Shown: one piece after another, positions 33,847-35,610 of the stretch
How the letters are laid out: the number at the start of each line of letters is the position of its first letter
Numbering within the stretch: the first letter of the stretch is position 1
Origin: Escherichia coli
GTDB taxonomy: Bacteria; Pseudomonadota; Gammaproteobacteria; Enterobacterales; Enterobacteriaceae
Direction: 5' to 3' (one strand)
Assembly: GCF_003334355.1 (NCBI RefSeq)
Contig: NZ_QOWP01000023.1
DNA length: 64,000 nucleotides
Position numbers and translations under genes: made by a program
Notes under the pieces: model-generated
Seen by the model: the letters and a program-made list of their open reading frames with translations, nothing else
The model's database searches: none
Told to the model about the DNA's origin: nothing

Positions 33847-33862
33847 TGTTAGTATTCTAACA
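33847..33862. promoter_or_regulatory. DeoR operator O2 (deoP2 region)
   Basis: Near-palindrome tgttagtattctaaca ~45 bp upstream of deoC start. Confidence 0.75.
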
Positions 33863-34059
33863 TCTACTCCGCAACACACTTCGATATACATCACAATTAA
33901 GGAAATCTACTTACAAGTTTGCATCACTGTAATGCGATCTGGTTCAAATAATTCACTTTCAAATGAATGCGTCAGTGGTGGCAAACGCATCAGGATCAAA
34001 GTGAACATCACGAAACTTCTTACAATGGCGCATCACCTTCGGCATAAAAGGAAAAGAAG

Positions 34060-35610
34060 ATGCCCACTTCTGATGAAAATGCACTGCAACAACGTTGCCA
34101 GCAAATTGTCACCAGCCCAGTGCTTAGCCCGGAGCAGAAGCGCCATTTTCTGGCACTTGAAGCAGAAAACAATCTGCCTTATCCGCAGCTGCCTGCCGAA
34201 GCCCGCCGTGCGCTGGATGAGGGTGTAATCTGCGATATGTTTGAAGGTCATGCGCCGTACAAACCGCGCTATGTCTTACCCGATTACGCCCGTTTTCTGG
34301 CGAACGGTTCCGAATGGCTGGAGCTGGAAGGCGCGAAAGATCTTGATGACGCACTCTCTCTGCTGACCATTCTTTACCACCACGTACCGTCGGTCACATC
34401 GATGCCGGTCTACCTGGGGCAACTGGATGCGTTGTTGCAACCGTATGTTAGAATTCTAACACAAGACGAGATCGATATTCGAATAAAACGTTTCTGGCGT
34501 TACCTCGACAGAACCCTGCCAGACGCCTTTATGCACGCCAATATCGGCCCGTCTGATTCGCCCATTACCCGTGCAATCTTACGTGCAGACGCAGAGTTGA
34601 AGCAGGTTTCACCGAACCTGACCTTTATCTACGATCCTGAAATCACCCCTGATGACCTACTGCTGGAAGTGGCGAAGAACATCTGTGAATGTAGCAAACC
34701 GCACATCGCCAACGGTCCGGTGCATGATAAAATTTTCACAAAAGGGGGCTACGGGATTGTGAGCTGTTACAACTCACTGCCGCTGGCGGGTGGTGGCAGC
34801 ACGCTGGTACGCCTTAACCTGAAAGCCATTGCCGAGCGCAGCGAATCGCTGGATGACTTCTTTACGCGCACTCTACCGCACTACTGCCAGCAGCAGATCG
34901 CCATCATTGATGCGCGGTGTGAATTCCTCTATCAACAATCACACTTCTTTGAGAATAGCTTCCTGGTGAAAGAAGGGCTGATTAACCCTGAACGTTTTGT
35001 GCCAATGTTTGGCATGTATGGGCTGGCGGAAGCGGTTAACTTGCTGTGTGAGAAAGAAGGGATTGCCGCGCGCTACGGTAAAGAAGCCGCCGCAAATGAA
35101 GTGGGTTATCGCATCAGCGCGCAACTGGCGGAGTTTGTCGCCAATACCCCCGTGAAATATGGCTGGCAAAAACGCGCCATGTTACACGCACAGTCGGGGA
35201 TCAGTTCCGATATCGGCACCACGCCGGGCGCGCGTTTACCCTATGGCGATGAGCCAGATCCGATCACCCATCTGCAAACTGTCGCCCCGCATCATGCTTA
35301 TTATTATTCCGGCATCAGCGACATTCTGACGCTCGACGAAACCATCAAACGTAATCCGCAGGCGCTGGTACAGCTTTGCCTCGGTGCCTTTAAAGCCGGA
35401 ATGCGTGAATTTACCGCCAATGTCAGCGGTAACGATCTGGTTCGCGTTACCGGTTATATGGTGCGTTTGTCGGATTTAGAAAAATATCGCGCCGAAGGTT
35501 CACGCACCAACACCACCTGGCTGGGCGAAGAAGCCGCACGCAACACTCGTATTCTGGAACGCCAGCCGCGCGTGATAAGCCATGAACAGCAGATGCGCTT
35601 TAGTCAGTAA
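34060..35610 (+). CDS. yjjI: Glycyl-radical-enzyme-like protein YjjI (DUF3029)
   Basis: 516 aa, [30 protein letters not shown]...; followed by its radical-SAM activase. Confidence 0.88.
34446..34461. promoter_or_regulatory. DeoR operator O1 (deoP1 region), embedded in the yjjI coding sequence
   Basis: Perfect 16-bp palindrome tgttagaattctaaca; centre-to-centre 599 bp from O2, matching the remembered deo O1-O2 spacing. Confidence 0.75.

Follow-up and report, generated by a model that had tools for sequence, protein, structure and literature searches.

DNA looping as a means of repression has its textbook case in the deo operators of Escherichia coli, and auxiliary operators inside coding sequences are familiar from lacO2 in lacZ and galOI in galE. 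The E. coli deo regulatory region, with its operators O1, O2 and OE and its promoters deoP1 and deoP2, was reportedly described by Dandanell and Hammer in 1985 and by Valentin-Hansen and co-workers in 1986. According to PMC8053113, two tandem promoters carry the DeoR operators O1 and O2, some 600 bp from each other, and OE lies about 300 bp farther upstream; PMC3334521 gives the O1–O2 distance as 599 bp. Loops between all deo operator sites are also described in PMC8053113, which cites Dandanell et al. 1987 and Amouyal et al. 1989. Here, we analyse a 64-kb stretch of DNA (64,000 nt, referred to as the window) that contains deoCABD and the neighbouring gene yjjI. We read the locus, with high confidence, as one in which three DeoR operators control deoCABD while the bases of O1, deoP1 and OE double as codons of yjjI. 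What is added here is the location of OE inside yjjI, a quantified codon freeze with a synteny control, and the finding that the 599-bp spacing is not conserved.

The deo control region in the window

The window derives from an E. coli chromosome. Its positions 33000–36000 match several complete E. coli genomes at 100% identity, and the region is present in 5,424 of 5,426. An identical E. coli stretch annotated in RefSeq has deoD-deoB-deoA-deoC on the minus and yjjI-yjjW on the plus strand (Table 1). The intergenic gap between yjjI and deoC is only 257 bp, so the whole deoP1 promoter, O1 and OE would lie inside the divergent yjjI coding sequence.

The preliminary description of this DNA had reported two palindromes, labelled O1 and O2, at a distance of 599 bp. 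Both 16-mers are present, at 33847–33862 (TGTTAGTATTCTAACA, also written tgttagtattctaaca) and at 34446–34461, and differ from each other by one base; their start-to-start spacing (34446 − 33847) is indeed 599 bp, the value also found in PMC3334521, and the labels agree with the published layout of the deo control region (PMC8053113). A search of the 64-kb window with TGTTAGAATTCTAACA at up to 3 mismatches returned O1 and O2 only, against 0.15 matches expected, and two or more matches occurred in 2 of 100 shuffled sequences. Simple arithmetic gives about 3e-5 expected occurrences of an exact 16-mer over both strands (128 kb). Allowing up to 4 mismatches added two more sites to the window, one of which is OE, exactly 279 bp beyond O1 and farther into yjjI; this operator, also within the gene, had been missed by the preliminary description. 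Read along the deo strand, the order is OE (TGTGAAAATTTTATCA), O1 (TGTTAGAATTCTAACA) and O2 (TGTTAGAATACTAACA), followed 45 nt on by the deoC start codon (ATG at 33802). We take the DeoR operator consensus of the 1985–1989 papers to be the 16-bp palindrome TGTTAGAA.TTCTAACA, which is O1 itself, and the OE–O1 distance in those papers to be exactly 279 bp. With the palindrome, the 599-bp spacing upstream of deoC and the third operator all found, we assign the three sites, on sequence and layout, to the long-known DeoR operators O1, O2 and OE of deoCABD, and the core of the arrangement was already known. The operator sequence strings themselves gave no match in the literature search and none in the loopometer supplement.

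Table 1 Features of the yjjI–deoC region, in window coordinates
Feature	Position	Strand	Sequence or basis
deoC CDS, first gene of deoCABD	33023–33802	minus	ORF list and RefSeq annotation of identical region
DeoR operator O2	33847–33862	minus	Deo-strand reading TGTTAGAATACTAACA; one mismatch to palindrome; identity from literature (PMC8053113)
deoP2 −10 hexamer	33854–33859	minus	Candidate; TAGAAT; inside O2
CRP site 1 of deoP2	33880–33895		ttcgatatacatcaca; motif of PMC4287617; conserved in intergenic alignment
CRP site 2 of deoP2	33933–33948		tgcgatctggttcaaa; half-sites conserved in 75-species intergenic alignment
Probable yjjI promoter	33993–34026	plus	GGATCAAAGT, FNR-like half-site at 33993–34002; TACAAT −10 at 34021–34026
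yjjI CDS, 516 aa, YjjI-family glycyl radical enzyme	34060–35610	plus	ORF list, RefSeq, TIGR04040, PF11230
DeoR operator O1, perfect palindrome	34446–34461	minus	TGTTAGAATTCTAACA (also written tgttagaattctaaca); deo strand also TGTTAGAATTCTAACA
deoP1 extended −10	34453–34458 (hexamer)	minus	Candidate; TGT TAGAAT; inside O1; P1 would start near 34446
Conserved block upstream of deoP1	34480–34500	minus	About −34 to −54 of P1; yjjI codons 141–147 CGA ATA AAA CGT TTC TGG CGT
DeoR operator OE	34725–34740	minus	TGATAAAATTTTCACA; deo-strand reading TGTGAAAATTTTATCA; 12 of 16 positions match palindrome
yjjW, glycyl-radical activase	35582–36445	plus	ORF list and RefSeq; start overlaps yjjI end

On the deo strand, both O1 and O2 contain TGT followed by TAGAAT, which would form an extended −10 element. 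A simple sigma-70 consensus scan of 33700–34900 called neither P1 nor P2, because the −35 hexamers are poor in both; its sole call was TCGCCA-16-TAAAAT with an upstream TG at 34706–34733, on the plus (yjjI) strand and overlapping OE. DeoR half-sites (TGTTAGAAT or TGATAAAAT) resemble extended −10 elements, and palindromic operators therefore look promoter-like on both strands. CRP site 1 is centred at 33887.5, 40.5 bp from 33847, and P2 would start near 33847 if the site lies at −40.5, the class-II geometry that we presume for it; the second CRP site we take to be that of the deoP2 literature. With the −10 in this geometry, P1 would likewise start near 34446, a placement that also draws on the 1980s deo literature. 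A CRP ChIP-seq peak reported at yjjI/deoC has the same motif as ttcgatatacatcaca (PMC4287617). No match for deoC, yjjI, the b-number or the coordinates was found in the supplementary data of either Kim 2012 or Mendoza-Vargas 2009.

A further CRP ChIP-seq peak, reported from ETEC inside yjjI, was given the motif CGTACCGTCGGTCACA (PMC4287617), which falls at 34384–34399 in the window, about 50 bp downstream of the expected P1 start. The third codon positions of this stretch vary (1.5–1.8 bits) and we rejected it as a constrained site. The peak may instead reflect cross-linking through the deo loop, with no real CRP site there.

In the mechanism taken from the literature, multimeric DeoR would bind cooperatively by DNA looping and shut both deo promoters. 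O2 would overlap the deoP2 −10 in the yjjI–deoC intergenic region and O1 the extended −10 of deoP1, 599 bp upstream of O2, with OE another 279 bp upstream. By this geometry, transcription from P1 would begin about 386 nt into yjjI and proceed antisense across the 5′ end and the promoter of that gene: of a leader of about 644 nt, the first 387 nt would be antisense to yjjI codons and the next part would cross the yjjI promoter region. The deo literature likewise points to deoP1 transcription that would be antisense to yjjI. A small ORF of 54 aa, antisense to yjjI and located where this leader begins (34276–34440, minus strand), is open in only 10 of 75 species and was dismissed as chance. Rfam returned no match in 33700–34900.

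The yjjI-proximal half of the intergenic region has only two conserved blocks in the 75-species alignment, GGATCAAAGT and TACAAT. Together they would place the yjjI transcription start near 34033, with the centre of the FNR-like half-site about 41 bp upstream. This placement of half-site and −10 fits the reported direct activation of yjjI by FNR (PMC3688515), for which the ChIP peak is at 4,615,181 (approximately window position 33967) and the transcription start is listed as not known. The deoP1 and yjjI promoters would then face each other at a distance of approximately 410 bp.

Frozen yjjI codons at O1 and OE

The preliminary description had put O1 about 390 bp inside yjjI, close to the measured +386 (386 nt after the A of ATG). 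O1 takes in the third base of codon 129 and all of codons 130–134 (taT GTT AGA ATT CTA ACA, Y V R I L T), and OE starts at +665 and occupies codons 222–227 (caT GAT AAA ATT TTC ACA, H D K I F T). The single CGA codon of yjjI falls in the O1/P1 stretch, as does one of the two ATA codons (both within the 34480–34500 block), and the stretch also has one of the two AGA and one of the three CTA codons. Public annotations also include shorter YjjI products of 391–476 aa, among them 402, 452 and 476 aa (P0011, P0083, P0111, P0112 and P0113).

A collection of species-representative genomes was scanned, and the matches listed include 80 yjjI loci at 71–99% amino-acid identity. Among these loci, 75 Enterobacterales species (Enterobacteriaceae and Hafniaceae) have deoC divergent from yjjI and form the comparison set. 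An O1-like site with 0–2 mismatches is found at exactly +386 in all 75 listed species, a set that spans Escherichia, Salmonella, Hafnia and Edwardsiella, and two further listed loci, where the sequence ends before deoC, also have O1. The palindrome is exact in 53 of the 75, and its deo-strand half TGTTAGAAT is invariant among them except for one position in two species; OE is identical to the E. coli form in 63 of the 75. In the codon alignment of the 75 species, mean third-position entropy is 0.047 bits at O1 and 0.111 bits at OE compared with a yjjI mean of 1.18. O1 has the lowest and OE the second-lowest third-position variability of 511 six-codon windows, a ranking of windows within one alignment of related species and not a probability. 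Since all windows come from that one alignment, shared ancestry affects every window equally. The next most conserved patches of yjjI, by the same within-alignment comparison, are the overlap with the yjjW start and then the 34480–34500 block, which is the third-lowest 16-nt entropy window in the gene and ranks 7 of 511 on third positions; it probably corresponds to the −35/UP region of deoP1.

The protein can change while the DNA stays operator-like. Residue 131 is variously R, K, G or I, with E in one species, and Hafnia and Edwardsiella have GTT GGA ATT CTA/TTA ACA at O1, where Escherichia has AGA. Selection on the function of the DNA would fix codon choice, including the rare AGA, CTA, CGA and ATA, and even residues.

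A natural control comes from genomes in which yjjI is not beside deoC, namely Proteus, Moellerella, Providencia and four further contigs, one of them beside deoB-deoD. None of these has an operator-like sequence at the O1 or OE position. In the Proteus, Moellerella and Providencia set (six sequences) the O1 window takes rank 505 and the OE window rank 425 of 511, which puts both with the most variable windows, again as places within one alignment and not as probabilities. The four Proteus genes, for example, use GTG/GTC/GTT, GGT/GGG/GGC, GAG/AAT/TCT/AAC, CTC/TTG/CTT and ACC/ACG as their O1 codons. The dual constraint that the preliminary description proposed for the 5′ part of yjjI is thus real for the O1 and OE codons: across O1 the third positions are frozen relative to the rest of the gene (0.047 versus 1.18 bits, rank 1 of 511 in the alignment), and the freeze at both sites is absent where deoC synteny is lost.

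The YjjI protein appears able to bear these sites because both fall in segments that vary freely across the family. In a 21-sequence YjjI family alignment, down to 33% identity, residues 130–134 and 223–227 are hypervariable, with conserved anchors close by (LLEP[FY]V before 130–134; P..AN and YG[IV]A around 223–227). A confident AlphaFold model (pLDDT 91.4) has 130–134 as a loop between helices 122–129 and 135–152, and residues 222–227, which lie between two strands, as a short helix plus loop. From YVG.LT, the likely ancestral form, few changes would be needed to become an operator.

Spacing is a different matter. O2 is found in all 75 listed syntenic species, in 15 variants and with the E. 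coli form in 25 of the 75, making the intergenic O2 less conserved than the intragenic O1. The distance between O1 and O2 ranges from 567 to 675 bp in these species (mode 601), and 599 bp occurs in only 7 of the 75, Escherichia and Salmonella diarizonae/arizonae. The preliminary description had called 599 bp canonical, which holds for the E. coli window and fails across species, and we reject a conserved looping distance. The O1–OE distance is fixed at 279 bp in the 75 listed species because there is no indel in the coding sequence between both sites.

Two side observations concern the neighbourhoods themselves. In Hafnia and Edwardsiella (L072, L073, L075 and L077) an insertion of approximately 200 nt lies between O2 and the deoC ribosome-binding site and widens the yjjI–deoC gap to 457–473 bp. 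It contains stretches conserved between both genera (…CGTTGGCGAGCGGACTTGGTTCC.TGAAGA…), and has no counterpart in the window; either an uncharacterised RNA element of the leader or a small gene may account for it. Rfam returned no match for the Hafnia insertion. Elsewhere, yjjI-yjjW can lie directly downstream of a NupC-type nucleoside transporter (L082 2647–3921, Moellerella; L086 2181–3431) or be divergent from deoB-deoD (L087 547–2693).

Alternative readings and a possible link to yjjI

The embedded sites could be explained without DeoR if the palindromes served yjjI itself, as an mRNA hairpin, a rare-codon translational pause or a protein motif, their likeness to DeoR operators being incidental. 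A palindrome is able to fold as an RNA hairpin, and the rare codons AGA and CTA are present there. However, the conservation is lost where yjjI is not beside deoC, although the protein is kept together with yjjW, and the residues concerned are those that are hypervariable across the family. In addition, O1 is the intergenic O2 apart from one base, and Rfam has no match in the region. The synteny control in particular largely refutes this reading, which we consider very improbable. Even harder to credit is a mis-annotated yjjI 5′ end, with translation from downstream of 34461 and with O1 and deoP1 intergenic. The 402-, 452- and 476-aa database entries would suit such a start, but the 402-aa form would begin at M115, which by length arithmetic is position 34402 and still upstream of O1, and OE (codon 222) is within every version of the gene. 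The family models also cover nearly the whole protein: NCBIfam TIGR04040 aligns over residues 11–504 at 788 bits against a curated cut-off of 498, and Pfam PF11230 over residues 22–504. Codons 1–128 have entropies of 0.38, 0.27 and 1.24 bits at positions 1, 2 and 3 in the 75 species, a coding signature in which position 3 varies much more than the other two, and the N-terminus can be aligned in homologues down to 33% identity. In all loci with gene calls listed, yjjI is followed by a radical-SAM gene, and the full-length TIGR04040 match above cut-off together with the adjacent activase gene identifies a YjjI-family glycyl radical enzyme. Translation from downstream of 34461, the outcome that would have undone the preliminary description, is contradicted by the models starting at residues 11 and 22 and by the coding-like codons 1–128; judged from these sequence comparisons, the yjjI start is sound and O1 lies inside the translated gene.

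The preferred reading, deoCABD operators embedded in yjjI, could be extended rather than replaced if the same sites also controlled yjjI-yjjW, which would make yjjI an unrecognised member of the DeoR regulon. DeoR bound at O1 and OE, or an O2–O1 loop enclosing the yjjI promoter, would block yjjI transcription, and after release of DeoR, transcription from deoP1 would run head-on into the yjjI promoter at a distance of about 410 bp. Such coupling would suit the facing positions of the proposed yjjI −10 and P1 start, the location of O1 and OE in the transcribed part of yjjI, and the placement of yjjI beside nucleoside genes in three arrangements within Enterobacterales (deoCABD, deoB-deoD and a NupC-type transporter). 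On the other hand, the literature searched contained no link of yjjI to DeoR and no paper naming the two together, more distant yjjI homologues have unrelated neighbours, and yjjI is reported to be FNR-activated and to cluster with nitrate genes. We therefore regard this extension as possible but rather unlikely. More speculative still is the broader view that YjjI/YjjW are under hidden DeoR/deoxynucleoside control, possibly tied to anaerobic nucleoside catabolism, with O2–O1–OE loops surrounding the yjjI promoter and setting roadblocks within the gene; it would fit the recurrent placement of yjjI by deoCABD, deoBD or a NupC-type transporter, and we consider it doubtful. A general nucleoside link for the YjjI family is unsupported outside Enterobacterales, where the neighbours of distant homologues are unrelated.

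Comparison with known looping systems

The yjjI–deoC locus is an unusually clean and quantified natural case of DNA that serves as protein code, promoter and operator at once. Five to six codons of the adjacent gene have stayed fixed in 75 species through a regulatory function, which has imposed rare codons and particular residues on tolerant parts of the protein, and lineages with a different yjjI neighbourhood supply a built-in control. There are practical consequences for strain construction: a Keio-type deletion of yjjI, genome recoding that removes AGA or CTA, or codon optimisation would remove or damage deoP1, O1 and OE and alter deo regulation. The possible coupling of yjjI to DeoR also becomes a concrete, testable hypothesis.

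Among described systems, the control region of E. coli deoCABD is this very system, with the same organism, the same palindrome, the same 599-bp and approximately 279-bp spacings, and the same place relative to deoC and the CRP sites. The element itself is identical; the classic deo work, however, is older than the genome sequence and did not regard the DNA upstream as a gene. The operators lacO2 and galOI are alike in that a looping operator lies in protein-coding sequence and the same bases carry two codes, but these lie in the first gene of their own operon, downstream of its promoter. In contrast, the gene that houses O1 and OE, together with what appears to be a complete promoter, is a different one of opposite orientation, and transcription from that promoter would run antisense to it. 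A further parallel is offered by face-to-face (convergent) promoter pairs with transcriptional interference and overlapping 5′ antisense transcripts, given that deoP1 and the proposed yjjI promoter would face each other across approximately 410 bp with overlapping transcripts, an arrangement deduced from sequence and conservation.
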